From the NCBI GenBank assembly GCA_934168325.1, contig CAKPNG010000002.1, forward strand, positions 11-64,010: a stretch of 64,000 nucleotides of DNA, written 5' to 3'. Below are positions 1-14,737 of the stretch, piece after piece. The translations under genes were made by a program, and so were the position numbers. Source of the DNA: an uncultured Bacilli bacterium (GTDB lineage Bacteria > Bacillota_I > Bacilli_A > RFN20 > CAG-826). The notes under the pieces are model-generated. The model ran no database searches, was not told the DNA's origin, and worked only from the letters and a program-made list of their open reading frames with translations. Position 1 is the stretch's first letter. The number at the start of each line of letters is the position of its first letter.

Positions 1-77
1 GAAAAAGTATTTGATAAAATACAATAAAATACAACTTTTTCAATTACAAACTGTCAAACTCAGGATTTTAGTCTAAA

Positions 78-752
78 TTAGAGCCAATTTAAAGTAGTAA
101 ATAAAAATTGTTTTAATGTATCAACTACTGCTTCATTTAATAATTGATAAGATTTCTTTTTATTTGGTTCAACATCATCTTTATGATTATGTTGTTTCTT
201 TTTATATATTTTACGAAGACAATCCCACATTTCAGGGCCTTCAATTAAATTTAATCTTTCACGATAATTTTTCATATCTTTTCGTATAGCCCATTCATAA
301 TCTTCATTATTCGCGTTATTAGTGTTTTTTTTATTATAAAGAATATAAAAATTGTCATCATCATCATAAGTTGTGATAATGATATCAAATCCATATCCTT
401 TATTATTGTTTTTTGTAGTCAATGCTTGCGTACTATCTTCACAAAAACTAAATCCTTTTGGTTTGAATTTATCAAATGCGTTTCTAAATATATCTTTAAT
501 TTTTTTACAATCTTTATTCCAATTATAATTACTAGGTATCGATTGCATTACAATTTGAAAATCTAAATCAAAATAATCTTCATTACATTTTCTAATAACC
601 ATGTTTCTACTTCCGGTACCTATAGTAGAATATGAGAATGTAATTTTATAATTCTTTTTTATATATTTTTGAACACTGCCGATCCAATTATTAAATGTTT
701 CTCTGGGACCAATTAATTCCTTTTTATTTACGTAATCACACACAAATATCAA
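78..752 (-). CDS. Minimal nucleotidyltransferase-fold (Pol-beta/MNT-like) protein, downstream partner of the Abi2/HEPN gene
   Basis: 224-aa ORF. It carries the hG[GS]-x13-DxD pattern IGTGSRNMVIRKCNEDYFDLDF (G45-S48, D62, D64; nt 561-620) and a third acidic strand GFDIIIT (D123). Its ATG overlaps the stop of the upstream ORF by 4 nt (749-752). Confidence 0.55.
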   Translation of the reverse strand: MIFVCDYVNKKELIGPRETFNNWIGSVQKYIKKNYKITFSYSTIGTGSRNMVIRKCNEDYFDLDFQIVMQSIPSNYNWNKDCKKIKDIFRNAFDKFKPKGFSFCEDSTQALTTKNNNKGYGFDIIITTYDDDDNFYILYNKKNTNNANNEDYEWAIRKDMKNYRERLNLIEGPEMWDCLRKIYKKKQHNHKDDVEPNKKKSYQLLNEAVVDTLKQFLFTTLNWL

Positions 753-1441
753 TCCTCCTTATATAATAAGAACTTATAATAAGTACTAGCTATATTATCT
801 TTCGTCTTTTTGTTTAGCACTTTAAGATTATTTAGACATCTATCTTTATAATCAGTTGGTAGCATATCAACTAATGCATCTATTCCTTTTAATGTTTCTT
901 CCACTGTTGATTCAAAATTAAAATCAAATAATAGTGGCGAATGATGCATAACTCTATTTCTTAAAGTTACGATTGTGTCTAACTTATCGGTATCATAATT
1001 ATGAGAAACATATTCTTTAACAAATGACACCAAATCACCAAAATTTAAAGCAAACATCTTGTAAAAATTAGTTATTTCATCAACAGGATTATTCTTTATT
1101 ACACATTTAGGTAATCCCTTAAAATAATGGTATTCAGTTTTCTTTAATTCAACATCTGGATCAAAATCAAATCTTAATAAAATATCATTTCTAATATATT
1201 CTTCTAACGTTCCTAAATATTTGAATAATACATCTTTTATTGCTTTATCAAGGATAATAAATGAATTGACATCGCTAAACTTAACATTAGAATCAACCTC
1301 ATTCAAAGTTTCAAAAATAATTCTATATTGTTGAACACCTCGAATTTTAGAATACTTTTCAAATGTTCGTTTATTATCATTATTAAGTTTTTCAATAAAC
1401 TCCTTAAATTCCATATTTTCCTCCAATGTATCAAGTTGCAC
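749..1441 (-). CDS. Abi_2 (AbiD/AbiF-like) HEPN-domain abortive-infection protein
   Basis: 230-aa ORF. TLRNRVMHHSPLL contains the HEPN Rx4H motif (R161, H166; nt 944-961) in the position typical of Abi_2 proteins (LRNxxAH). It is translationally coupled to the NTase ORF. Confidence 0.6.
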   Translation of the reverse strand: MQLDTLEENMEFKEFIEKLNNDNKRTFEKYSKIRGVQQYRIIFETLNEVDSNVKFSDVNSFIILDKAIKDVLFKYLGTLEEYIRNDILLRFDFDPDVELKKTEYHYFKGLPKCVIKNNPVDEITNFYKMFALNFGDLVSFVKEYVSHNYDTDKLDTIVTLRNRVMHHSPLLFDFNFESTVEETLKGIDALVDMLPTDYKDRCLNNLKVLNKKTKDNIASTYYKFLLYKED

Positions 1442-1531
1442 TCAAATGACAACTTTTAGAAAGTTTCCGTAAGCTATTGAATTATTCATCCATTTTAAGG
1501 CAACAATAACTTCAGTTATTAACACTTCTTA

Positions 1532-2512
1532 TTACGACTGTATGTTCTTAGATGCGGGTAATAAAATAAATGGTTTCATTTTTAAAAGCTTAACTAATTC
1601 ATTTAACCAAATATTAATTTTATCTCTATTATCTTTCTTAGAAATCATTTTTAAAAAGGTATTATATTTATTTTTTAGCGTTGGTCCATCCATTTCTGAA
1701 ATTGCAGTTTTAATTATATCAAACGAACAAAAAGAATTATTATCATTAAGCTCATATATAGTTTTTGTCTCAAAATCATTAATCTTAATATCTTTTCTAG
1801 AACAACGAAGTCTTATTTCAGATGATAATAATACCAAAGGCAATTCATTATTATTTATTGGTGTTACCTCTTTTACCAATTCATCATTAACACAAATTTC
1901 TTCTTTTATTAAATTTGAACCAGTTTCTATATCTTTTATTCCAAGATTTTCGCATGATGAATCACTTGAATATGTCGAAATAAATTTAATATTATTCATA
2001 GACATATAATAAACAATACCAAATACCTCAGATAATAATGATTCTGGAATATTATTAATTGTAACCTTACGATTCCATAATTTTAATTGTTCAAAAGAAT
2101 ATAAAGCCCAATAATTATATAAATTAATTGCAAAATATAATTTATAGCCATTTTTATTAGCCCAATCAACTCTACTTTCAAAATTCCCGTTTGATATGCA
2201 ATATTCTTCTTTAGTTGTTGACTTAATCTCAACCATTATTTTTTCATCATTTTTTAATATAATGATTGCATCACATGACTTTTCTCCAACATTCGAAGTA
2301 AATTCCTCATCTATTGGAATAATTTCTTTGCATGCATTACATATATATAAATTACCGATAAATTCATATTCACGCTCAAGGCCTTTTATTCTTTCCTCAA
2401 AATTATTAGAATCAACACCTAATCCAGTTAAAATGTTATTAAATTGTTCCGATGTTATTTCTTCTTTAAGTGCTTTCAAGGTTTTAATTAATTCTATGCT
2501 TGGTTCATTCAT
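1532..2512 (-). CDS. Uncharacterised protein with a PD-(D/E)xK nuclease-like motif
   Basis: 326-aa ORF. SD AGGAG lies 9 nt upstream of the ATG. CDAIIILKNDEKIMVEIKST gives D81-x13-E95-x-K97, preceded by acidic residues (EREYE). Confidence 0.4.
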   Translation of the reverse strand: MNEPSIELIKTLKALKEEITSEQFNNILTGLGVDSNNFEERIKGLEREYEFIGNLYICNACKEIIPIDEEFTSNVGEKSCDAIIILKNDEKIMVEIKSTTKEEYCISNGNFESRVDWANKNGYKLYFAINLYNYWALYSFEQLKLWNRKVTINNIPESLLSEVFGIVYYMSMNNIKFISTYSSDSSCENLGIKDIETGSNLIKEEICVNDELVKEVTPINNNELPLVLLSSEIRLRCSRKDIKINDFETKTIYELNDNNSFCSFDIIKTAISEMDGPTLKNKYNTFLKMISKKDNRDKINIWLNELVKLLKMKPFILLPASKNIQS

Positions 2513-2538
2513 TATGCCACACTCCTACTTTTTATTTT

Positions 2539-3061
2539 TTATTTAAGATTTAATGTAATTGTAACAGCATCTTCTTCGCCTAATAACTCAACTAATTCAG
2601 TTTTAGTTAAATTAATATGACCTAATTTAGTATAAGACCATGTATTAGATCCATAAAAATACTATTTGGTTAGATTGATATAGACATATATCTCCAGCAT
2701 TAGTTGTAATACTACTATCATTGGATTTAATAGTGCTCCCTAATGAACCAAACTGTTCAAATCCACCATATTGATGGAGTTCTATTGTTAATCCATCTTT
2801 AGCAAGTTTCTTTAATTCTTTAACTGAATCATTATCCATCCAATAAACATCAACATCGCTACTATCTAGGGTTAAAACCAATGTTTTAGATAAATATGAT
2901 TCATCTTCTTTAGGTTCATCACTAGGTGATGTATTATCAGAAAGAATTATTGTTGGTGAGATATCATTGGTTGGTGGTGTTGAAGAATTATCATTTTTGC
3001 CACAAGCTGACAACGAGAAGACTAATATTAAAGTTACTAGTAATGTTATTAGTTTTTTCAT
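2539..3061 (-). pseudogene. Cyclophilin-like-domain lipoprotein, frameshifted in a T5 run near the 3' end
   Basis: It has its own SD (AGGTGA 5 nt before the ATG at 3061) and a lipobox signal MKKLITLLVTLILVFSLSAC. The ORF stops at 2645 after ...YQSNQIVFLWI. The +1 frame continues as FYGSNTWSYTKLGHINLTKTELVELLGEEDAVTITLNLK* down to 2539, which restores the conserved C-terminus of this domain family. Confidence 0.6.
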
Positions 3062-3976
3062 ATATTCACCTAATGAGACTTTTTTAAATCCTTTTTTAGT
3101 ATCCGCATCAAAACCTATCTTCCAAAAATCCATATCAAGCATTTTCATTTGAGGATAAGGCAATCCTTCAACACACATTTTAACTCTTGTCTCCTCTAAT
3201 TTACTATAATTAGATTCATAAAAATCAACTAACGCTAATATTGATTTAGTATTAAATCTTTTTATGCCTATATTTTCTCCCGATAATCCATCTTTGAAAT
3301 ATCTATCATATGCTGGGCAGCATCCTAGAACACCCATTAATGCCTTTGTTACTAGTGCTTCAGAAACATCCTGTAATATTTCTTCTTCCTTTACTTCTTT
3401 TCTAATCTTGTCATAATAATTAGCGATAAAATCAACTAGTTCGAATAAAAGATTCATAGTATCTTTATTCTTATATTGAAAACATTCAATTCCAAATAAA
3501 ATGTCATATTTGTGATTTAGAACTTCTTTTATGATAGGAATACGAATTCTATAATCCTTCTGCAATAAAAATGATGATCGTCTATACATTCCCCAACTTG
3601 CTAAATAGAAAGATAAATGTAAACTTAAATAATTATAGTCTGGATTATCATTTTTTCTTGCATCATGAAACACTTTATAATTATGCTCCCAAGAGCGAAA
3701 CCTTTCGTATTCATAAACTCTTAATTCATTATAAAAATCAGTTGATGCTGTTATTATTTTTTCTATAGTCTCAGGATTGTAAGTTTTTCTATTTAAAGCA
3801 TCATTATCTATGTTTAATGAAGCCTCTTTACCGTTTAAAATTGAATTTATTTTTCGTTCTAAATCATTGGTGATTCTATTTTTGAACATATTATCAGTCC
3901 AACCATAATCTCGAAGAAATCTTCTACAAATTTCTTTTCTATTATCAATAGGAAGTCCATCAATTCTTGCAATCAT
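3062..3976 (-). CDS. Uncharacterised protein (about 305 aa) whose frame runs without a stop into the lipoprotein gene
   Basis: This is the N-terminal part of the 443-aa ORF 2645..3976. It contains the motif LSFYLASWGMYRRSSFLLQKDY. I recognise no family and there is no stop before the lipoprotein ATG at 3061. Confidence 0.4.
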
Positions 3977-4050: not shown

Positions 4051-5196
4051 CTATTCTTCAAGCAATTTTATAAATAAAGTAAATCTAGCTTCGATAAAAA
4101 GTGGATTAGTCTTCTTAAACATCATATGAGACACATTATCAGTTACAGTCATTAAATCTGCAAAAGTTTTTAATGTTTTAAAAGCTTCGCTGTTTTTATC
4201 TAATCCTGTAATAAAGGCAAATATAGCCATTTCGTCATTGTGACTCAAAAAATTATATAATCTTGCAACAAAGCCACAAATAACATCACAAATTTGTATC
4301 TCTCTACTAGTTTTTGAATCCAAGAAATGAACATCTAATTTATTTTCATAATCATCATCAAATTCACCCAATTGTTTAGTAATTGAAGCTTCATTATCAA
4401 AATATTTTTTGTCTTTAATTTCAATCATTCTTGAAAGATAATTAGAAAACACATCACTTGATATAACATATGGTTCATTATCTTCTAAAAAAATCAAATT
4501 TGATTTATCTCTTTTGGCTTTAATAATTTGTCTTAATAATTCTTTTGTAAAATTCTCAATATCATCTGGATCATACTTTTCATAATTATAAGCATATAAA
4601 TCTAATACATCTCTAATAAAATTATTTGCTTTATTCTTAGGGACATTTGGAAATTCATATTTTACTAATAACGCATGTAATTCATCATAATCTTGATATA
4701 AAACTTCCGTCATATAACTTTGAAGTTGTTTATAATACATAAGTGCAGCAAATTGATTTGCATCATTTTCTTCTATTAGAGAATCTAGAATATCAGTTAA
4801 CGCAAAGTGCATATAATGTAAAACATCAAAATGAATTAAAATATTGTTATTAAGAAGATATTCAAAAAACTTTCTCAATCTTGATTGATTAATTGCCTCT
4901 AAGAAATTATTATGCTTAAAAGCAAAGAAATTAAACTTAGCATCAATTGGGGTTTGTCTTGCTCCAACATATTTTAATAAATCATTAAAATCTAGTGTAT
5001 TTTTTATTGCAATCCCACCAAGAACAAAATATAAGTTTTCTAAGTCTGCATTATTGTCTTTATCATAGCCTATAATCCCTTTTTTTATATTATTGCTCTC
5101 ATCAAAATAAAAAATGTGGTTTATATGTAATGATGGAATATTCAGCTTTTCAATATTTTCTTTATATGAATTTATGAAATCATCTAATTTAGTCAT
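4051..5196 (-). CDS. DUF3800-like protein
   Basis: N-terminal HIFYFDESNN and C-terminal REIQICDVICGFV resemble the two conserved DUF3800 boxes (DESG ... QxaD). The start is taken at MTKLDDF (5196), which overlaps the upstream stop by 8 nt. Confidence 0.5.
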   Translation of the reverse strand: MTKLDDFINSYKENIEKLNIPSLHINHIFYFDESNNIKKGIIGYDKDNNADLENLYFVLGGIAIKNTLDFNDLLKYVGARQTPIDAKFNFFAFKHNNFLEAINQSRLRKFFEYLLNNNILIHFDVLHYMHFALTDILDSLIEENDANQFAALMYYKQLQSYMTEVLYQDYDELHALLVKYEFPNVPKNKANNFIRDVLDLYAYNYEKYDPDDIENFTKELLRQIIKAKRDKSNLIFLEDNEPYVISSDVFSNYLSRMIEIKDKKYFDNEASITKQLGEFDDDYENKLDVHFLDSKTSREIQICDVICGFVARLYNFLSHNDEMAIFAFITGLDKNSEAFKTLKTFADLMTVTDNVSHMMFKKTNPLFIEARFTLFIKLLEE

Positions 5197-6148
5197 TGAA
5201 AGAATCACCTCTTTCTTTAAGGCTAAACTCTTTATCACTTTCAGTAAGTTTAATAATTTCTATATTTTTTTCATTAGCTATTCTAAACAGCTCTTCGTAT
5301 TCATTAGATTTTGTATCAGCCTTACATCCTACATAAATCTTTATAATTTTAGTAGGCATTGTATATAGACTCAATTCTTCTAATTTAGAAACTCTATCAC
5401 TACTTGGGGATAAGATACATCTAACCACTACTTCATATTGCCAATCTAATGACTTAACAATAAATGGTTTAGATATACATCTTATTAGTCCTTTATCATT
5501 AACATCAGCTTCTTCGTTTGATAGCATATATCCAAGCACTCTTCTTGTAGTATCTTCTAAATCGAATTTGCATCTTTTCTTAGAATACTTAACATCAAGA
5601 AAATCCTTATCAGGTCTATCAAATTCAATACATATGCCTTTATGTTTGTCTCCATAATGTGACCACATTAGAATAGAATCAAATCGTTTACTAAAGCATG
5701 AAATTAAAGCGTTATTTCGCACTTCTTTTACTTTTTGAATAATTTCACTAGTAAATTTCTCTTTCAATTCATCAAAAGAATTTTCACCATTTTTAGCAGC
5801 ATATCTAACTATCCATCTAGTTAATGTTTGAGCGCCAGGAATAGAGTCATAATACTTATTCTTTTTTGATAATTTCAAATTAAGATTAATACCGAATCTA
5901 TCCCACTTCATAATAAGCTTTGTTAAAAAGCTAACTTTAATATTCTTATTATTTAACAACTTCAAAAATTCTTGAATTAAATAGTACTCAACTATTATAG
6001 AAATTGATTTTTCAATATCGGTATCATCAAAATCTATAACACTATCAAAAGGATCATTATAGTTTTGTGGGCTATTAAGTGCAACAGCATTACTTTCTAA
6101 TATCTTAATTGCACTTTTTAATGATGTATACTTGTATATTTTTTCCAC
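5189..6148 (-). CDS. DUF2971-like protein
   Basis: KIYKYTSLKSAIKILESNAVALNSPQNYNDPFDS and ISCFSKRFDSILMWSHYGDKHKGICIEF match the characteristic DUF2971 boxes. It has a GTG start with SD AAAGGAG. Confidence 0.6.
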   Translation of the reverse strand: MEKIYKYTSLKSAIKILESNAVALNSPQNYNDPFDSVIDFDDTDIEKSISIIVEYYLIQEFLKLLNNKNIKVSFLTKLIMKWDRFGINLNLKLSKKNKYYDSIPGAQTLTRWIVRYAAKNGENSFDELKEKFTSEIIQKVKEVRNNALISCFSKRFDSILMWSHYGDKHKGICIEFDRPDKDFLDVKYSKKRCKFDLEDTTRRVLGYMLSNEEADVNDKGLIRCISKPFIVKSLDWQYEVVVRCILSPSSDRVSKLEELSLYTMPTKIIKIYVGCKADTKSNEYEELFRIANEKNIEIIKLTESDKEFSLKERGDSFND

Positions 6149-6307: not shown

Positions 6308-6763
6308 GTTGGCCAGATCATCAAAATAATAGATAATAAAAAGATGCCTATATCTCATAATATTAAAAACAGATCATTTCAAAAATTATCATTTCTATCA
6401 ACATCATCTATGGGACAAACAATATTGTCATCAGATTTAGATATTGAAGGAATCCCCGTTTATAGCGCTACTATGGATGATTCTCCGTTTGGTTACATAA
6501 AAGAAACAAAAAATAAAATGTATCTTACTAAAGGAGATATAGTAATTCCTGCTAGAGGTAATTCGATAGGATATGTAACTTATATTAATGATAGTTTGGC
6601 AACATGTACTCAGACTACAATTGCATTGTATCCAATTACTAAAGTTATTAGTAAATTTGTATACTATTATTTTAAAGCATATAAAGACTACTTGTTTGAA
6701 TATATTGGTGGAGCAATTCCACAAATTACATTAAAAATGATAAATGAAATTATAGTTCCGCTC

Positions 6764-7078
6764 CCACCTCTTCAAGAACAAGAACGAATAGTTAATAAAA
6801 TTGATAAATTATTTGAATTAGTCGATAAAATAGAAAAGGATCAGCAAGAACTTGAAGAACTAAAGAAACAAGCTAAGGATAAGGTCTTAGAGCTTGCTGT
6901 TACTGGTAAACTAGTTAAACAAGACCCTAACGATGAACCTGCTTCAGTCCTTCTAGAACGTATTAAAGCTGAGAAAGAAAAGCTTATTAAAGAAGGAAAA
7001 ATCAAGATAGAAAAGGCTGATTTAGAACCAATTTCTGATGATGATAAAAATTATTATGAGAATATACCATCTAATTGG
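6764..7078 (+). repeat. 315-bp perfect inverted repeat IR-B (hsdS central conserved region)
   Basis: I compared it segment by segment with the reverse complement of 9971-10285 and found them identical. It encodes PPLQEQERIVNKIDKL...DDDKNYYENIPSNW. Confidence 0.9.
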
Positions 7079-7556
7079 ATAGTTACTAGTCTAAATAGCA
7101 TATGTACAAAAATTGTTGATGGAAACCACAATCCACCAAAAGGATGTCAGCAAAAAACAGATTATTATATGTTGTCATCACAAAATATAGTAGACGGAAA
7201 TATTATTGAATTAAGTAAAGTTAGATTTTTAACCAAAGATCAATTCCTTGAAGAAAATAAAAGGACGAAGTTATCCATTAACGATATTTTATTTACAAGT
7301 GTTGGTTCAATAGGGCGCTCTTGCGTTTTTAACCATAATTATAATATATGTTTTCAAAGAAGCGTTTCTGTTATAACAACTTTAATTAATCCTTATTATG
7401 TAAAATTATTCTTCGATGCCCCAATGCAACAAGTATGGTTTACCAAAAAAGCATCTGGGACAGCTCAAAAGGGTTTTTATTTAAATCAATTAAGTAATCT
7501 ACTTATAGCTGTTCCACCAATATATGAACAATCCAAAATCGTAAAAAAATATAATA

Positions 7557-8052
7557 TTATAGCAAAGAATTTAACAACTTAAATTTGCGACAAATCCTTT
7601 CCTGTTCATCTAAATTTGGAATTGCGACAACTTCATTTAATAAGTCGTTTCTTTCTATTCCAGGTATCATGCTTTTAGCTTTTATTTGCAATTTATATAC
7701 CGTATTTAAAATTAACAAAACATTAAATTGAGTATTAATATAAGATGTAATTCCCATAATTTGTCTAGCAATATGTAAATCACCAATAGTATTTATTGCA
7801 ATTTTGCCGATGGTTCCTTTGCATGTAATTAATATATCATCAATATGAGAATTACAATACTTTATTTTTGTATATCTATTTACGATTAAATTATTGCTAG
7901 TAAAATTACTTGCTCCTGTCATATATGGAATGTCATCATCGCATCGAATACTATGATATTCGTTTGGAGTCAAATCATATCCTGATGTTAATCTTATTAC
8001 ATTTGATAATCTACAAACGCACCACGAACTATTAATGTTCTTATAATAATTT
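7557..8052 (-). other. Silent hsdS TRD2 half-cassette (no start codon or promoter)
   Basis: The frame is open from about 8095. It begins ...RNYYKNINSSW, which mimics the end of the central repeat (KNYYENIPSNW), and ends with an hsdS C-terminal helix (IPNLDEQERICRKFKLLNSLL). A 10-nt match AAATTATTAT lies at 8043-8052. Confidence 0.7.
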
Positions 8053-8096
8053 CTATAAGTAAATAATAGGCTCCATAATCGGAACCTATTTTCTTT

Positions 8097-8900
8097 TTAC
8101 CATGTGACGATTTTATCTACTATAGCTTGTTGTTCGCTTGCTGTTTTTCTTAAATATATTCTAGTTGTTTCAATAGATTCATGTCCCATTAAATCAGCCA
8201 GAAGAGCTATGTCATTATATTTTTCTAAGAAGTTTTTGGCAAAGCGATGTCTAAATGAATGAGGATAAACAACTTTAGGATCAATTCCATATTTCACTGC
8301 ATAATTTTTAAGTTGTTGTGATATTCCTCTTGTGGTGATTCTATCTCCAAATCGATTAAGAAAAATATATCCACTTTCTATATGAACTGTTTCATTTAGC
8401 CAAGTTGTGGTTTCTTTTCTTAAAGCTATTGGAATATAGATTCTTCTAATCTTTCCTCCTTTAGTATATAAATCTATAAAACCAAGATTTACATGTTCAA
8501 CTTTAATTTTAATAAGCTCACTAACTCTTGCTCCAGTAGCACATAAAAATCTTACAATAAAGTACCATTCTTTATTGTTTTCTTGTTTTAATTTCTTTTT
8601 GAAAAAAACGTAATCAGCATCACTAATTACGTTCTCAAGGAATGTTCTTTGTTGAACCTTAACTGATTTTATTCGCAGGTTCGGTTTCTTGATAAATTCC
8701 AAATATTTATTTATAGCCTGTAATTTTAAATTTACAGTTTTAGCTTTGAAATTCTCAATTAAGTATGCCTTCCATGCTAATAGATTCTTTTTTGTAAAAT
8801 CGTCATAGTTACTAATGTATCCTTTTACAGCAGTGATATAAGCAGATACGGTGTTTGGTGCCAAATTATTTGACACTAAAAATTTTTTAAATGCATCCAT
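8097..8900 (-). CDS. Tyrosine site-specific recombinase (XerC/D-like), candidate shufflon invertase
   Basis: ATGARVSELIKIK (Arg box), HSFRHRFA (HxxR) and LMGHESIETTRIYL (His/Tyr) are present. The start is taken at MDAFKK (8900), preceded by AAGGAGG. The 8945 start looks like an ORF-caller extension. Confidence 0.85.
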   Translation of the reverse strand: MDAFKKFLVSNNLAPNTVSAYITAVKGYISNYDDFTKKNLLAWKAYLIENFKAKTVNLKLQAINKYLEFIKKPNLRIKSVKVQQRTFLENVISDADYVFFKKKLKQENNKEWYFIVRFLCATGARVSELIKIKVEHVNLGFIDLYTKGGKIRRIYIPIALRKETTTWLNETVHIESGYIFLNRFGDRITTRGISQQLKNYAVKYGIDPKVVYPHSFRHRFAKNFLEKYNDIALLADLMGHESIETTRIYLRKTASEQQAIVDKIVTW

Positions 8901-8982
8901 AATTCGTCCTCCTTTTTGAATGGATAAATGAATTATAAAATACATTTGATTTGTTTATTTTTAAGTAACTACAATAACATAC

Positions 8983-8995
8983 AAAAATTATTATG
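8983..8995 (+). repeat. 13-nt inverted repeat IR-C (AAAAATTATTATG), 5' boundary of TRD2 cassettes
   Basis: Reverse complement of 9991-10003 (inside the expressed hsdS). The same sequence also occurs in direct form at 7046-7058. All copies share the same codon phase (K-N-Y-Y). Confidence 0.7.
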
Positions 8996-9516
8996 GGCAG
9001 TTACCGATTAACTGGGCATGGACCAACCTATCTTCTTTATCTAAATCAATTACGGATGGGACACATAAAACGCCAAAGTATTTAGATTCAGGAATACCTT
9101 TTTTGTCAATTGCGAATATTTCTTCTGGAAGTTTTGATAATTGCCCGAAATATATTTCACCTGATGAACATAATCAGCTAACTAAGAGGGCAAAACCTGA
9201 ATATGGCGATATTTTATTGTGTAGAATCGGAACTTTAGGTAAGCCATTTATTGTTAATATGACTTTTGATTTTAGTATCTTCGTAAGTCTTGCTCTAATA
9301 AAACCAATAGCTATCAAACAAAATGAATATTTAAAAATGGTATTGTCTTCTCCATTTATTAGTAACCATATCGATAGAATAAAAGTGGGTGGCGGAACAC
9401 ATACATATAAAATTAATCTTGATAATTTGTTAACATTTCCTATACCTCGTCCTCCACAAAAAGAACAAAATGAGATTATATCTAAAGTAACTGAATTAAT
9501 GAATTTACTTTATTGA
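8983..9516 (+). other. Silent hsdS TRD2 half-cassette (no start codon or promoter)
   Basis: The frame opens just after a TAA at about 8965. It begins KNYYGQLPINWAW...DGTHKTPKYLDSGIPFLS (a typical TRD start) and ends PPQKEQNEIISKVTELMNLLY. The 13-nt AAAAATTATTATG at 8983-8995 equals the end of the central repeat. Confidence 0.75.
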
Positions 9517-10948
9517 TAATTCTTTTTTGCTCATTTTCTGGTGCTATAGGTAATGCAAAATTATTAAATGCTTTTTGTGTCAACTGATTAATAGTAGTTG
9601 TTCCACTAGTTTTTTCAAGTTGATTATAATAATATTTTGTTTGCAAAAACAAATATATCCATTTTGAGTATTCAGATTTGCATATAGCCATAAAAGCACC
9701 AAAAGTCATCGGTTCATTGATATTTGAAACAAATGCTGATTTTCCTACTAGATGCTTACTGCCATTTCTAGCACATATTATAATATCATTATTATTAACA
9801 ACCAATTTGCTAGGAATTCGGCTATTCACTCGAATAACATCATTAAAATCAAGCTTGCCATTTTTTATATTACTCGAACGTAGTACAATTATACCATTAT
9901 CGCAAATATTATTAGGACTATATGTTAATCCAATGTATGAATCAGAAATACTTTGAATTTTTGCAATAGACCAATTAGATGGTATATTCTCATAATAATT
10001 TTTATCATCATCAGAAATTGGTTCTAAATCAGCCTTTTCTATCTTGATTTTTCCTTCTTTAATAAGCTTTTCTTTCTCAGCTTTAATACGTTCTAGAAGG
10101 ACTGAAGCAGGTTCATCGTTAGGGTCTTGTTTAACTAGTTTACCAGTAACAGCAAGCTCTAAGACCTTATCCTTAGCTTGTTTCTTTAGTTCTTCAAGTT
10201 CTTGCTGATCCTTTTCTATTTTATCGACTAATTCAAATAATTTATCAATTTTATTAACTATTCGTTCTTGTTCTTGAAGAGGTGGTATTAATATTGATAA
10301 AGACTTGAATTTAGATAAAGGTATACCACCTATTATGCCCTGCATATTATCTCTAAATTCGTTGTTAAAAGTTATGCTATTAAAGAAATAGTAAACAAAT
10401 TTTGATATCACTATAAAAGGGCTAACGCACGCCAATTTATTTACAAAGCATACATCTTTATTTATCAATCCGATTTTATTACCCGCATTTGCTCCTTCTA
10501 GGCAAATAAGAATAGAATTTTGTTTTGCCCTTTTTAGTGAATAATCCAATGGAATATAAAGACCATTCTCATAATTTATATTCCCATTTAAATCAATATC
10601 TTTTGTAGCAATATAATGATGAAAACTATCTAATTTAATTGATAAATCGATTTTTTGTTTATCATTAAGGCTATTACCAGTATATATATTGGAAAAATAT
10701 TGTAATTGAAGGCAAGACCATCCTGAAGGAATGTCATTCTTCTCATAATAACAATTATCGTCATCACTCCAATAGATATCCGATTCTTCTACTTTTGATA
10801 TTTTCTTCTCTTTTTCAAGTTTTTTTCTTTCTTCTCTTATTCTAGCTAAAAGTTCCTCAACTGGCTCATCGTTAGGATCCTGTGGAACCAATTTTCCACG
10901 CATAGCTAAATCAAGAATTTTTTGTTTTAATGCTTTAGTATCTATCAT
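9482..10948 (-). CDS. hsdS: Type I R-M specificity subunit HsdS (expressed copy)
   Basis: 488 aa with two TRDs separated by the conserved coiled-coil region. Its ATG overlaps the hsdM TGA (ATGA at 10945-10948). Confidence 0.9.
   Translation of the reverse strand: MIDTKALKQKILDLAMRGKLVPQDPNDEPVEELLARIREERKKLEKEKKISKVEESDIYWSDDDNCYYEKNDIPSGWSCLQLQYFSNIYTGNSLNDKQKIDLSIKLDSFHHYIATKDIDLNGNINYENGLYIPLDYSLKRAKQNSILICLEGANAGNKIGLINKDVCFVNKLACVSPFIVISKFVYYFFNSITFNNEFRDNMQGIIGGIPLSKFKSLSILIPPLQEQERIVNKIDKLFELVDKIEKDQQELEELKKQAKDKVLELAVTGKLVKQDPNDEPASVLLERIKAEKEKLIKEGKIKIEKADLEPISDDDKNYYENIPSNWSIAKIQSISDSYIGLTYSPNNICDNGIIVLRSSNIKNGKLDFNDVIRVNSRIPSKLVVNNNDIIICARNGSKHLVGKSAFVSNINEPMTFGAFMAICKSEYSKWIYLFLQTKYYYNQLEKTSGTTTINQLTQKAFNNFALPIAPENEQKRIINKVNSLIQLL
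9971..10285 (-). repeat. 315-bp inverted repeat IR-B, partner copy
   Basis: Exact reverse complement of 6764-7078. Confidence 0.9.
9991..10003 (-). repeat. 13-nt IR-C copy inside the expressed hsdS
   Basis: CATAATAATTTTT is the reverse complement of 8983-8995. Confidence 0.7.
10739..10758 (-). repeat. 20-nt IR-A copy inside the expressed hsdS
   Basis: CTTCTCATAATAACAATTAT is the reverse complement of 6288-6307. Confidence 0.85.
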
Positions 10949-12414
10949 TCTTCAATATCCTTAATTAATTCTTTTAATTGAGCCACTGAATCGCTGATAC
11001 TTTTTGATTTTTCTTCAATCATATCAACAAGTTGATGAAGTGTATAATCTTGCTTTTCTTCTTTAATATTTGGATTTTTAAAGTCAATATTATATGTTTC
11101 TTCAATCTTGTCTTGCTTTACAAAATAAGCATTTATATCGCCATTATCTCTATTATTCCACCATCCACGAACGCCTTTTAAATGTTCAGCTGTAAATGGT
11201 TTAGTTTTACTAAAGCTTCTATATCCTTCAGGAAGTGGTACTTGATAATACCAAATTCCATCAGTTTTTTCACCTTTATCAAAGAATAAAATATTTGTTG
11301 TAATACCTGCATAGAATAATCCAGCTGGAAGTTTTACTATTGTATGTAAATTGCATTCAGACATTAATTTTTTCTTGATGTTAACATAAGCATCATCTGT
11401 ATTAAATAGGAAACCATCTGGTAAAATGATGCCTACTCTACCATTTTTAGCAAGTCTATATAAAACTAGGCATACGAATAGATTGGCTGTCTCTGATGTT
11501 CTATATGATTCAGGAAAGTTCGCATCTTCTCCTGGAGCAATTTCTCCACCAAATGGAGGATTCATTAAAACAACATCAACTTTATCACTTTCAGTATATT
11601 CTGTGACATTCTTAGCTAATGATGATGCATATCTAATATTAGAACCATCTGTTCCATTTAATAACATATTTGTAACACACAATAAATATGGTAATGGTTT
11701 ACATTCACAACCAATTATATTATCTTGCATACTATCAAGAGCTTCTTGTGTATTATGTTTCTTTAGAATATGTTGAATTGCAGAAACTAAGAATCCACCA
11801 GTACCACAAGCAAAGTCTGCAATTTTTTCGCCTGGTTTTGGATCTAACATTTCTGCCATGAAATCAGTTACTGGTCTTGGGGTATAAAATTCTCCAGAAC
11901 TTCCTGCATTTTGTAATTCTTTAAGAATTGATTCATAAATATCATTAAATACATGTCTATCTTCATATTTATCAAAATCTATTTCATTTAATTCGTTAAT
12001 GACTTGTCTGATTAAAGTTCCATTAATCATATAATTATGAAGACGTGAAAATACATACTTTACAATAGCAGATCTTTTTGGAGTTGTTTCATCTACAGAC
12101 AAATCTCTTAAAGTGGGGAATAATTTATTATTGATAAAATCAACTAATTCGTCACCTGTTAAAGAATCACCTGTTGGTTTTCCTTCAGAATCAACTTTTT
12201 CAACTGCCCAATTACGCCATCTATATTCTTCTGGAATAATAGATTTATAGTTATCTATTTCAATTTCGTATTCATTACTTTCTTTTAATTCATCATATAC
12301 TTTTAAGAAAAGCATCCAAACAAGCTGATTGATACGTTGAGCATCTCCATCAACTCCATTGTCTTTTCGCATTATTTTTCTTACTCTTTTAACTAATCCA
12401 TTTAAATCTGCCAT
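10945..12414 (-). CDS. hsdM: Type I R-M N6-adenine DNA methyltransferase HsdM
   Basis: 489 aa with the NPPFGG catalytic motif (VVLMNPPFGG), the AdoMet motif DFACGTGGFL, and an HsdM N-terminal domain. Confidence 0.92.
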   Translation of the reverse strand: MADLNGLVKRVRKIMRKDNGVDGDAQRINQLVWMLFLKVYDELKESNEYEIEIDNYKSIIPEEYRWRNWAVEKVDSEGKPTGDSLTGDELVDFINNKLFPTLRDLSVDETTPKRSAIVKYVFSRLHNYMINGTLIRQVINELNEIDFDKYEDRHVFNDIYESILKELQNAGSSGEFYTPRPVTDFMAEMLDPKPGEKIADFACGTGGFLVSAIQHILKKHNTQEALDSMQDNIIGCECKPLPYLLCVTNMLLNGTDGSNIRYASSLAKNVTEYTESDKVDVVLMNPPFGGEIAPGEDANFPESYRTSETANLFVCLVLYRLAKNGRVGIILPDGFLFNTDDAYVNIKKKLMSECNLHTIVKLPAGLFYAGITTNILFFDKGEKTDGIWYYQVPLPEGYRSFSKTKPFTAEHLKGVRGWWNNRDNGDINAYFVKQDKIEETYNIDFKNPNIKEEKQDYTLHQLVDMIEEKSKSISDSVAQLKELIKDIEE

Positions 12415-12415
12415 A

Positions 12416-14737
12416 TTATGCTGCTCCTGCTACTGAATATAAATTGCTTTTTACAAATTGAACTGCTTGTAAATAGTTATCTCTACCGCCAAATATTTCC
12501 TTAATAATTTGTTTTGGTGTTCCAAATTCTTTAAATTCATCAAGTTTAAGAATATTAATGTCATCAACATCATCTATTCCTTCATCACAATATTTGTCTA
12601 ATAATCTATCAATTACTTCTCTAGCAATTCCTGTATATTTATCAAGAAGTTCAGACTTTTTAATGCTCTTTACTCTTTCGCTTCTTGTTAATGGTTTTGC
12701 TTCATATGCTATATAACATATTAAATCAAAATCATCCATATCTTCAACACCTAATTCTGCTCTAATTTGCTCTAGCAAAACTCCATGATAAACTAATTCA
12801 TCAACTATAGCTTTATGTTTTTTCTCACTAGTCCATTTTTGAATAAATTCATCTAAAGTTGCATACTGGTTTAAGATATTTTTCTTTGTGTAATTGATTA
12901 ATGATTGTTTTGTTAAATTACCATCAGGGTCTAAAATTGATACTTCTTCACCCATAATCGTGACTTTGTTTCCGTCAATATGATATACAGGATTTTGGCC
13001 TTCGCCTCCTCCTCCACCACTTGACCTGTGACCGTTATCATCCACATACTCAATTGGTCCATCCCACTTAGGATCAGCAAACAATCTTGTTACTTGTCTA
13101 AAATCAATTATAATAAATTCGTATTTTCTGTCAGCTTCTCTTAATCTAGTTCCACGACCAATAATTTGTTTAAATAAAGTCATAGATGATATTACTTTAT
13201 CTAATACTATTAATTTTGCTGTTTTACAATCCACACCTGTTGTCATCAAATCGGATGAAGTAACAATACATGGGTCAATATCCATATTAAATTCTGCTTT
13301 TGCGAAATCGGTTAAATCAGCTTGTGCTGTTGGAGAATCACCTGTAATTCTAGTTACATATCGAGGATTTTTTCTACAAATATCTAAATTAAGATTCCAC
13401 AACTCTTGTCTTAGTCTTTCGGCATGAACTATATTGCAACAGAAAACAATAGTTTTTTGGTATCTATCTGTTTCCTTTAAATAATTTGTTATTTGTTTAG
13501 CAACCTCTTTTGTTCTTGAATCAACTATCAATTTTTTATCAAAATCATTTGTAGTATAAATTCTGTCTTCTAATAAATTTCCGTGAATATCTAATTGACC
13601 AGGATATGGTCTATATCCTTTAACATCTATATCAAGGAATTTCTTCATAACTTTATATGGAGCTAGGAATCCATCTTCTATACCTTGTTTTAGAGAATAA
13701 ACATATACTGGTTCTCCAAAATATGTTTTAGCTAAATCAACTTCTTGTTCATCATCTTCATCATCTGTCTTCTTGCCTTTTAAATATACCTTTGGAGTTG
13801 CAGTCATACCAATTTGAATTGCGCTTTCAAACCAATCAAGTATTTCTCTCCAATGAGAGTCTTCTTTAGCACTTCCTCTATGACACTCATCAACAATGAT
13901 TAAATCAAAGAAATCTCTAGAAACTTGCTTAAAGGCTTCTAAGTTTGATTCTCCTTTTTCGTTATCTAATTGTTGATAAAGTCCAAAGAATATCTCATAA
14001 GAAGTATCTATTTTACCTTTTGTAATGATAGTTTTAGATGCACCAAAAGGAGCAAACTCTTCATTAAAAGGTTTGCCAATTAATACATTTCTATCAGCTA
14101 AATATAAAACTTTTTTAACTTTACGCATTTGTTTTAACTTCCAAACAATTTGGAATGCAGTATAGGTTTTACCTGTTCCTGTAGCCAAAACAATTAAAGC
14201 TCTACGTTTTCCATTAGCAATTGCTTCTAATGTTTTATCAACAGATGCCTTTTGATAATATCTAGGTCTAAAATCAGGATCAGTATAAAAAGGAAATTCA
14301 ATTAACTTCAATTGTTCTTCAGTTAAATTCTTTTCGTTAATATAACGTTCTCTTAATACTTCAGGTGATGGAAATTCAGCCATTGTCAAGTCTCTTTCAA
14401 GTCCGGTTATCAAATCATGTTCAACGAAACCATGACCATTTGAACTATACGCAAACGGAACATTTAAAAGTCTTGCATATTCTATTGCTTGAAGTAAACC
14501 TTGTCCAGGAGTATGATCTTCGTCTTTTGCTTCAACAATTGCCAAATTAGTATTATTAACATATCTTAATAAATAATCAGCATATTTTCTTTTTCCTCTA
14601 GTCATTACTCCATTTGATGAAACATGAACACGTCCATCAGTGAAATATTCCATGCGATAATTAGCCCAACCCGCTCTATCAATCGCAGGTGTTATATATA
14701 ATCTTTTTACATCTTCTTCAGAAAACTTTTCAGGCAT
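12416..14737 (-). CDS. hsdR: Type I restriction endonuclease/helicase subunit HsdR
   Basis: 773 aa with Walker A LATGTGKT, DEAH-type box VDECHRGS, and helicase motif VI QIIGRGTR. A 1-nt gap separates it from hsdM. Confidence 0.92.
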   Translation of the reverse strand: MPEKFSEEDVKRLYITPAIDRAGWANYRMEYFTDGRVHVSSNGVMTRGKRKYADYLLRYVNNTNLAIVEAKDEDHTPGQGLLQAIEYARLLNVPFAYSSNGHGFVEHDLITGLERDLTMAEFPSPEVLRERYINEKNLTEEQLKLIEFPFYTDPDFRPRYYQKASVDKTLEAIANGKRRALIVLATGTGKTYTAFQIVWKLKQMRKVKKVLYLADRNVLIGKPFNEEFAPFGASKTIITKGKIDTSYEIFFGLYQQLDNEKGESNLEAFKQVSRDFFDLIIVDECHRGSAKEDSHWREILDWFESAIQIGMTATPKVYLKGKKTDDEDDEQEVDLAKTYFGEPVYVYSLKQGIEDGFLAPYKVMKKFLDIDVKGYRPYPGQLDIHGNLLEDRIYTTNDFDKKLIVDSRTKEVAKQITNYLKETDRYQKTIVFCCNIVHAERLRQELWNLNLDICRKNPRYVTRITGDSPTAQADLTDFAKAEFNMDIDPCIVTSSDLMTTGVDCKTAKLIVLDKVISSMTLFKQIIGRGTRLREADRKYEFIIIDFRQVTRLFADPKWDGPIEYVDDNGHRSSGGGGGEGQNPVYHIDGNKVTIMGEEVSILDPDGNLTKQSLINYTKKNILNQYATLDEFIQKWTSEKKHKAIVDELVYHGVLLEQIRAELGVEDMDDFDLICYIAYEAKPLTRSERVKSIKKSELLDKYTGIAREVIDRLLDKYCDEGIDDVDDINILKLDEFKEFGTPKQIIKEIFGGRDNYLQAVQFVKSNLYSVAGAA

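Follow-up and report, generated by a model that had tools for sequence, protein, structure and literature searches.

What does a two-gene unit do in which a gene for a predicted RNase of the Abi_2 family is directly followed by a gene for a predicted nucleotidyltransferase (NTase), and in which direction might one product control the other? The question is raised by positions 78-1441 of a 64,000-nt stretch of DNA from an uncultured Bacilli bacterium (contig CAKPNG010000002.1, assembly GCA_934168325.1; the whole stretch is denoted here the window), for which a preliminary description made from the sequence alone had proposed a HEPN/MNT-like abortive-infection module. The two open reading frames (ORFs) are present as described; in the ORF list of the window, they adjoin on the same strand, which the description left unstated and which is the minus strand. 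We find that the pair, as far as sequence can tell, looks like an undescribed anti-phage or toxin-control module and is probably a conflict system. It combines a minimal Abi_2-family protein (gene A) with an apparently stripped-down relative of the nucleotidyltransferases of cGAS/DncV-like type (CD-NTases; gene B), and our computational analysis would classify it as an NTase-regulated HEPN or nucleotide-signaling defense module. As in the preliminary description, which knew of no Abi2-NTase system, full-text literature searches (the HEPN census, an Abi_2 neighborhood survey of 7,828 genomes, a lactococcal Abi review, and recent defense-system reviews, with subscription literature outside their scope) returned no pairing of Abi2 with an NTase or of HEPN with the cyclic oligonucleotide-based anti-phage signaling system (CBASS). 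The pair is not recognized as a system by PADLOC, NCBIfam, Pfam, or PHROGs, and the sources that name the proteins call them hypothetical.

The elements of the locus are the following.
749..1414, minus strand: gene A, encoding a predicted minimal Abi_2-family (HEPN-type) protein of 221 aa, ATG at 1414..1412 and TGA stop at 751..749 (from the ORF, homologue N-termini, and Pfam Abi_2).
1420..1424, minus strand: GGAGG ribosome-binding site of gene A, 5 nt before ATG 1414, read directly from the sequence.
941..964, minus strand: LRNRVMHH, predicted HEPN catalytic motif (R152-x4-H157, H158), from its invariance among homologues.
754..758, minus strand: GGAGG ribosome-binding site of gene B, within the 3' end of gene A, from the sequence and its equivalents in other loci.
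78..743, minus strand: gene B, encoding a predicted minimal CD-NTase-like nucleotidyltransferase of 221 aa, GTG at 743..741 and stop at 80..78 (from homologue N-termini, an AlphaFold2 (AF2) model, and Foldseek).
561..620, minus strand: NTase hG[GS] and DxD catalytic motifs, G42-T43 ... D59-L-D61, from conservation in 140 representatives.
384..386, minus strand: D120, the third acidic member of the catalytic set, situated on the beta-strand that comes next, from conservation and the AF2 model.

Both starts were set by comparison with homologues. The gene A ORF can be read from GTG 1441 as 230 aa; all homologues have 221 aa and the N-terminus MEFKEF, and we therefore place the start at ATG 1414. 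The motif LRNRVMHH, which the preliminary description numbered R161/H166, is correctly numbered in the 230-aa reading and corresponds to R152/H157 of the 221-aa protein. The gene B ORF was listed from TTG 752 (224 aa). Because homologue N-termini all read MCxY and four other loci (L010-L013) have ATG at the exact position of GTG 743..741 of the window, the start is assigned to GTG 743. This codon comes 5 nt after the TGA stop of gene A, and the genes of the window abut without overlap; the ATGA overlap previously reported at 749-752 does not exist, the plus strand there reading TCAA and the minus strand TTGA. In other loci, the NTase start lies 4-18 nt past the Abi2 stop or the genes overlap by 8-20 nt, and GGAG precedes the NTase start, inside gene A, in all 21 loci examined. 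A promoter and terminator scan was uninformative in this DNA of 25-28% GC (26 promoter-like sites where 22.7 would be expected, and not one terminator). The GC content of the pair is 24.7%, compared with 28.0% for the window. The window ends 77 nt beyond the NTase stop; in a 97%-identical contig (L008), only small unrelated ORFs follow the NTase.

The assignment of the downstream protein to the Pol-beta superfamily of NTases, with an intact catalytic set, is supported, by the structure model rather than by Pfam. No Pfam NTase family matched gene B at E ≤ 1, and none matched any of 58 diverse relatives; MNT, NTP_transf_2, Polbeta, SMODS, Mab-21, and AbiEii/DUF1814 were without a match in either; PDB sequences were not matched by single-sequence queries with gene B or by profile queries with the NTase family. 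The AF2 model of gene B, made for the 224-aa reading (pLDDT 88, pTM 0.83), consists of a long N-terminal helix, the canonical Pol-beta NTase topology, and three C-terminal helices. With this model, Foldseek gave 57 matches in PDB at E ≤ 1e-3. The best 50 consist only of CD-NTases and cGAS, led by DwCdnB 8yss (E 2.5e-8, TMq 0.62) and followed by CdnB, CdnE, DncV, CdnC, CdnG, and human cGAS, with no MNT, AbiEii/MenT, or antibiotic NTase among these 50. At the sequence level, the only NTase-type library matches of the family are CBASS cyclase models, namely, PADLOC "Cyclase" (PDLC00795; E 1e-3 for gene B, and 17 of the 58 relatives, best 1e-8) and NCBIfam CBASS_cyclase_a (3 of the 58, best 8.8e-5). 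Considering the Foldseek and cyclase-model matches, we class gene B, on its model and sequence, as a stripped-down cGAS/DncV-like enzyme and not an MNT protein. Of the checks suggested in the preliminary description, profile and structure comparison thus recovered Abi_2 through Pfam and a CD-NTase fold through Foldseek, but neither NTP_transf_2 nor SMODS in Pfam.

An exhaustive profile search expanded the NTase family to 702 clusters (50% identity) at E ≤ 1e-3, 370 of them at E ≤ 1e-10, with members mostly of 205-220 aa. Compared with known CD-NTases, gene B is short by about 80-100 aa of the C-terminal lobe, and we know of no CD-NTase-fold protein smaller than its 25 kDa. Residue conservation was assessed in 140 family representatives clustered at 50% identity, in the numbering of the 221-aa protein: G42 and D59 are present in all 140, S43 in 139 (Thr in the window copy, 615-617), D61 in 139, D120 in 137, Y180 in 134, S198 in 130, and S104 and K184 in 127 each. 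D120 is on predicted strand 120-129 of the 224-aa model. The pattern GS-x13-DxD plus a third acidic residue, noted earlier, exists literally as GS-x13-DLD, and its D62/D64/D123 correspond to D59/D61/D120, but the GS conserved in the family is the earlier G42-[S]43. Position 4, near the N-terminus, is aromatic in 127/140 representatives (101 Y, 21 F, 5 W) and belongs to the MCxY N-terminus (732-743, residues 1-4), which is invariant or nearly so across the Abi2-linked clade. No counterpart of this Y4-type aromatic is known from CD-NTases, and its role might be in priming or regulation.

For gene A, the earlier assignment to the Abi_2/HEPN type is likewise supported by sequence-family membership. 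Pfam Abi_2 (PF07751) matches the protein at 29.3-29.5 bits, above the gathering cut-off of 25.6, over profile positions 4-81 of 184 only, and 35 of 38 diverse relatives match the same family (best 2.3e-8). PADLOC AbiD (1.2e-3) and PHROG 2158, "abortive infection resistance protein" (E 1e-4), match as well; weak matches to HepT-like (1.2e-3) and to HEPN_RiboL-PSP were each found in a single one of the 38 relatives scanned. No variation was seen at R152, N153, H157, or H158, either among 38 homologues or among the 13 distinct pairs, which reach down to 25% identity, and a phage copy of gene A also retains the RNxVMHH-type motif. Like the G, DxD, and D residues of the NTase, invariant or nearly so in the 140 representatives, these are not chance occurrences of a pattern. 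The AF2 model (pLDDT 95.8) is all-helical with a small beta insertion. Foldseek found nothing significant for it in PDB (Csm6 at E 2) or BFVD, and the HEPN fold therefore rests on membership in the sequence family; single-sequence and profile queries of PDB sequences were uninformative, and a third homologue search, with the Abi2 profile, did not reach outside the same family.

Gene A is essentially a bare Abi_2 domain, scarcely longer than the domain itself. The protein is soluble (no transmembrane segment; maximum 19-residue Kyte-Doolittle hydropathy 1.01), and its library matches are Abi_2 and AbiD (Pfam and PADLOC), with no CARF, SAVED, or other sensor family. It shares with AbiF and AbiD the Abi_2 domain, the RNxxxH motif, and a location on phages or in defense islands. 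AbiD and AbiF are proteins of about 300-350 aa; the 221 aa of gene A also contrast with the 315 positions of the PHROG abortive-infection profile. A further difference from AbiF/AbiD (PMC12373285) is that gene A has an obligate NTase partner instead of the abiF RNA, for which an Rfam scan of window positions 1-3000 at E ≤ 10 found no motif.

The comparison with HEPN/MNT modules in the preliminary description therefore needs to be restated. As in the type VII toxin-antitoxin system HepT/MntA, a HEPN RNase would be combined with a Pol-beta-superfamily NTase as a plausible negative regulator, and both families include fused NTase-effector versions. In contrast, gene B is not MNT, to judge from the missing Pfam match and the CD-NTase-like bilobed model, and gene A is of the Abi_2 type and not HepT/DUF86, its RNxVMHHSPL lacking the tyrosine of Rx4HxY. 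The resemblance is thus a functional analogy at best. The gene order is indeed reversed, with the HEPN gene first in all loci, and both proteins are larger than their HEPN/MNT counterparts, as stated before, but by a factor of about 1.6 rather than two.

We examined the pairing by searching the six-frame ORFs of all fetched loci with profiles of both families. Among 65 loci with an NTase-family match, 57 have an Abi2-like gene immediately upstream on the same strand; of the other eight, three are without upstream sequence and five, all from remoter NTase subfamilies, are unpaired. Within the paired clade, the Abi2-like gene stands directly before the NTase in 57/57 loci retaining upstream sequence, which bears out the expectation that the two genes would be conserved as neighbors elsewhere. 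By NTase identity, these 57 loci form 38 clusters at 99%, 28 at 95%, 19 at 70%, and 7 at 50%, and the pairing persists down to 33-36% NTase identity (L018 and L019). Look-ups from the Abi2 side (P0084, P0201, and P0136) found the NTase in three of three cases. Pairwise identities of the Abi2 and NTase proteins are correlated (r = 0.88 over 78 pairs), which is compatible with co-inheritance as a module and is by itself no proof of physical interaction. These observations support a strictly co-conserved, tightly coupled operon, found in defense-type neighborhoods.

In two loci (L056 1915-2578 and L055 229-892), a frameshift within a stretch that contains two A7 runs breaks the NTase into two ORFs, and the upstream Abi2 is intact (RNKVMHH). 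Over the 700 nt compared, these two independently named assemblies do not differ. The split may represent a genuine pseudogene, phase-variable switching, or an assembly error common to both.

A relative occurs in only 10 of 185,579 species genomes. The hosts are gut or rumen bacteria, namely, "Clostridium sp. CAG:288" (95% identity; probably the source of the window or closely related to it) and uncultured Mollicutes, Acholeplasmatales, Anaeroplasmataceae, and Bacilli metagenome-assembled genomes; by depositor names, one "Candidatus Cloacimonadota" and one "Acidaminococcus sp. CAG:917" record are added. Table 4 (TGA = Trp) is needed for the correct translation of three contigs, two with the full pair (L025 and L026) and one with a solo NTase (L021), so that the NTase family, and in L025 and L026 the full pair, occurs in Mycoplasma-type recoded organisms as well. 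The whole pair is carried by a phage, NatCom_17901 from human feces (PV036423.1, L029; a complete 57-kb gut Caudoviricetes genome), at 4312-5581, with a 26-nt overlap and upstream of genes for anaerobic ribonucleotide reductase and thymidylate kinase; both proteins are annotated as hypothetical. A scan of IMG/VR with a narrow NTase alignment found no relative, and plasmid sequences gave no match.

The flanks of the pair vary between loci and often consist of defense genes: Pycsar and AAA_21 (L004), McrBC, GmrSD, and HEPN_RiboL-PSP (L007), type I restriction-modification (R-M; L018), or AAA_13 and NYN (L019). Some loci have housekeeping flanks, namely, CysRS and SpoU (L001), SAM synthetase (L025), and PolC (L064). 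In the window, the pair forms the edge of a defense island that extends to 14.7 kb and contains a Hjc-like nuclease, DUF3800/PDC-S51, DUF2971/PDC-S31, and a type I R-M hsdS shufflon. RNase J and the ribosomal-protein/rpoA region follow the island, which places the locus on the chromosome.

The analysis thus shows the domain identities, conserved catalytic motifs, obligate pairing, tight coupling, defense-island and phage context, and absence of an abiF RNA. As to mechanism, we favor negative control, tentatively and at somewhat less than an even chance: the RNase would be toxic by itself, and the NTase would restrain it by way of a nucleotide product or a modification. The two genes would act as one mobile module, most likely anti-phage or toxin-antitoxin-like, in which gene A supplies a minimal Abi_2-family HEPN RNase as the toxic effector and gene B would be produced in step with it, from the ribosome-binding site within the 3' end of gene A. 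In the uninfected cell, the NTase would hold the RNase off by one of two routes. A short nucleotide or oligonucleotide might occupy the RNase in place of the abiF RNA antitoxin, as in guards of the Hailong or Panoptes type, or the NTase might modify the RNase by nucleotidylylation, in the way of MntA with HepT. On infection, the product would be lost or no longer made, and RNA cleavage would be released. The oligonucleotide appears more likely than protein AMPylation because the model of gene B is CD-NTase-like and two-lobed.

Several lines of evidence point toward negative control. Gene A consists of hardly more than the Abi_2 domain, with no detectable sensor. Proteins of the Abi_2 family are toxic on their own, and bound RCd22/abiF RNA neutralizes them (PMC12373285); it is this neutralizing nucleic acid whose motif is absent here. 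All three look-ups from the Abi2 side gave an NTase, whereas remoter clades do contain NTases that lack an Abi2 partner. The fusion of a family NTase to an HNH effector parallels the fused MNT-HEPN systems, which are documented (PMC13000451). Finally, the order of effector first and NTase second is that of Hailong. In Hailong (HalA/HalB) and in Panoptes (mCpol/2TM-beta), an effector gene is followed by a gene for a small nucleotide-polymerizing enzyme, and the product of this enzyme, made constitutively, keeps the effector inactive (reviewed in PMC13434031). The effectors of both are membrane proteins (a transmembrane ion channel in the case of Hailong HalA), unlike the soluble gene A product without a transmembrane helix. 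NTases of the HalB type make Tyr-primed oligo-dA; a profile search covering PDB sequences only, which found no NTase, gave no sequence connection to HalB or mCpol.

Other features weigh against negative control. The modeled fold of gene B is closest to signal-making CD-NTases, which in CBASS activate effectors; gene A lacks a Tyr after the catalytic His, unlike the AMPylation site of HepT; and the HEPN geometry of the gene A model is unconfirmed by any fold match in PDB or BFVD. The co-divergence of the two proteins may reflect mere shared descent. The split NTase in L055 and L056, if real, would mean that the RNase is tolerated without the NTase.

Activation in the manner of CBASS or of OAS and RNase L is a near alternative, somewhat less likely, which also fits the data and likewise makes the NTase the regulator of the RNase. 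Here, the NTase would stay silent until infection and then make a cyclic or linear oligonucleotide as second messenger, which would bind the Abi2 protein and switch on its HEPN RNase, leading to abortive infection. The fold of gene B argues for it, with all top 50 Foldseek matches in PDB being CD-NTases or cGAS, and so does the restriction of the NTase-family library matches to CBASS cyclases (PDLC00795 in 17/58 relatives and CBASS_cyclase_a in 3/58). One conserved NTase combined with varied partners (Abi2, HNH, and a domain without a family match) resembles CBASS with its effectors, and the effector-first order is also that of some CBASS operons (capV-dncV). An intact Abi2 beside a frameshifted NTase in L055 and L056 would fit an effector that is inert in the absence of a signal. 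Like type I CBASS, the module is a two-gene operon in defense islands and on phages, with a cGAS/DncV-like fold and the G[S]-DxD-D set. However, the NTase has about 215 aa compared with 270-400 aa in known CD-NTases, lacking some 80-100 aa of the C-terminal lobe and any Pfam SMODS or Mab-21 match. The partner is an Abi_2 HEPN protein, barely larger than Abi_2 and with no recognizable ligand-sensor domain, be it SAVED, STING, Cap15, or another known sensor; no HEPN or Abi2 effector of CBASS was found in the searched literature; and fusions of cyclase and effector, such as NTase-HNH, are atypical of CBASS. The module and CBASS meet at the level of the NTase fold only.

OAS and RNase L of animals are a precedent for such an NTase-HEPN pairing: OAS has a cGAS-like fold, and the KEN domain of RNase L belongs to the HEPN superfamily. 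We claim homology between the animal pair and ours at the superfamily level only. RNase L senses 2-5A (2',5'-oligoadenylate) via ankyrin and pseudokinase domains, which are absent from gene A.

It is improbable that toxicity resides in the NTase, which would then act like AbiEii/MenT (on tRNA by nucleotidylylation, for instance), with the Abi2-like protein as antitoxin or co-effector, or that the two are independent effectors traveling together. Solo mini-NTases in remoter clades (L021 and L022/23), in which the catalytic triad is invariant as well, imply that the enzyme can act without Abi2, and NTase toxins are known from AbiE/MenAT systems (PMC13064643). Nevertheless, gene B has no AbiEii/DUF1814 match, AbiEii/MenT structures are not among its top Foldseek matches, and the full RNxxxHH motif in every partner suggests that Abi2 is an enzyme rather than a passive antitoxin. 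Strict adjacency and tight coupling weigh against independent effectors. A housekeeping pair for RNA metabolism (RNA cleavage with tailing or repair) that is no conflict system could account for the placement between housekeeping genes in L001, L025, and L064, but is highly improbable given the patchy distribution (10/185,579 species genomes), varying insertion sites often next to defense genes, carriage by a phage, Abi_2 membership, and low GC (24.7% vs 28.0%).

The members of the NTase family without Abi2 linkage belong to its remoter branches. P0242 is the solo NTase on the table-4 contig L021; P0333 is preceded by an unrelated secreted small protein, near YoeB/Phd or MutH/Dcm (L022 and L023); P0315 (L024 459-1463) is an NTase with a C-terminal HNH nuclease fusion; and P0269 (L062 634-1698) and P0279 combine the NTase with a conserved C-terminal domain of about 130 aa without a family match. 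These varied partners suggest that the mini-NTase is a reusable module with different nuclease-type partners. A more specific idea, which we consider rather unlikely, is that this minimal cGAS-like enzyme makes an oligonucleotide, possibly protein-primed, that directly gates the bare Abi2 HEPN RNase without a dedicated sensor, replacing the abiF RNA antitoxin. In function, the pair would then be the bacterial equivalent of OAS-RNase L or, working the opposite way, a nucleotide guard, and the mini-NTase would be re-used with HNH and other effectors.

The neighbors of the pair in the window were also inspected. Directly upstream (1532-2512), a 326-aa protein has a weak Hjc-like (PD-(D/E)xK nuclease) Pfam match (22.8 vs 21.1 bits). 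We rejected it as a third component because synteny was seen in close relatives only (L008, L009, L011, and L013). The ORF at 2645-3976 (443 aa) joins a 299-aa protein without a known family to a protein with a lipoprotein signal and a cyclophilin-like region; each part is a gene of its own in the 96%-identical contigs L008 (2259-3685) and L009. In L004-L006, the NTase is directly followed downstream by a homologue of the 299-aa part with 30% identity (L004 6798-7826). The 299-aa part could be a loosely linked defense gene, or the ORF of the window could be a fusion or a frameshift artefact. As a component of the module, this part was rejected, its homologue adjoining the pair in L004-L006 only, which indicates loose defense-island linkage.

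Farther along, positions 4051-6148 hold two overlapping PADLOC-candidate genes, DUF3800 (PDC-S51, E 3e-61) and DUF2971 (PDC-S31, E 2.5e-35). The type I R-M locus at 6344-14737 comprises hsdR (12416-14737), hsdM (10945-12414), hsdS (9482-10948), a tyrosine recombinase (8097-8945), and additional hsdS genes, complete or partial (6344-7582, plus strand; 7557-7973, minus strand). A perfect 315-nt inverted repeat joins 6764-7078 with 9971-10285. From its sequence, this arrangement has the layout of a phase-variable hsdS shufflon.

Abi_2 (AbiD/AbiF) genes are among the commonest phage-defense genes, and their control is known in one case only, that of the RNA antitoxin; an enzyme as obligate partner would add a second mode of control of a very different kind. 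The NTase would define a minimal cGAS/DncV fold of about 215 aa, with at least 700 protein clusters at 50% identity, in a family invisible to Pfam and nearly so to the profiles of defense finders, and the pair would be the first link between CBASS-type enzymes and HEPN RNases in bacteria. The hosts are uncultured gut Bacilli and Mollicutes with reduced genomes, whose immune repertoires are poorly charted. If the idea of direct gating by an oligonucleotide is true, the pair would represent a new class of NTase-HEPN immune module common to Mollicutes-like gut bacteria and their phages.

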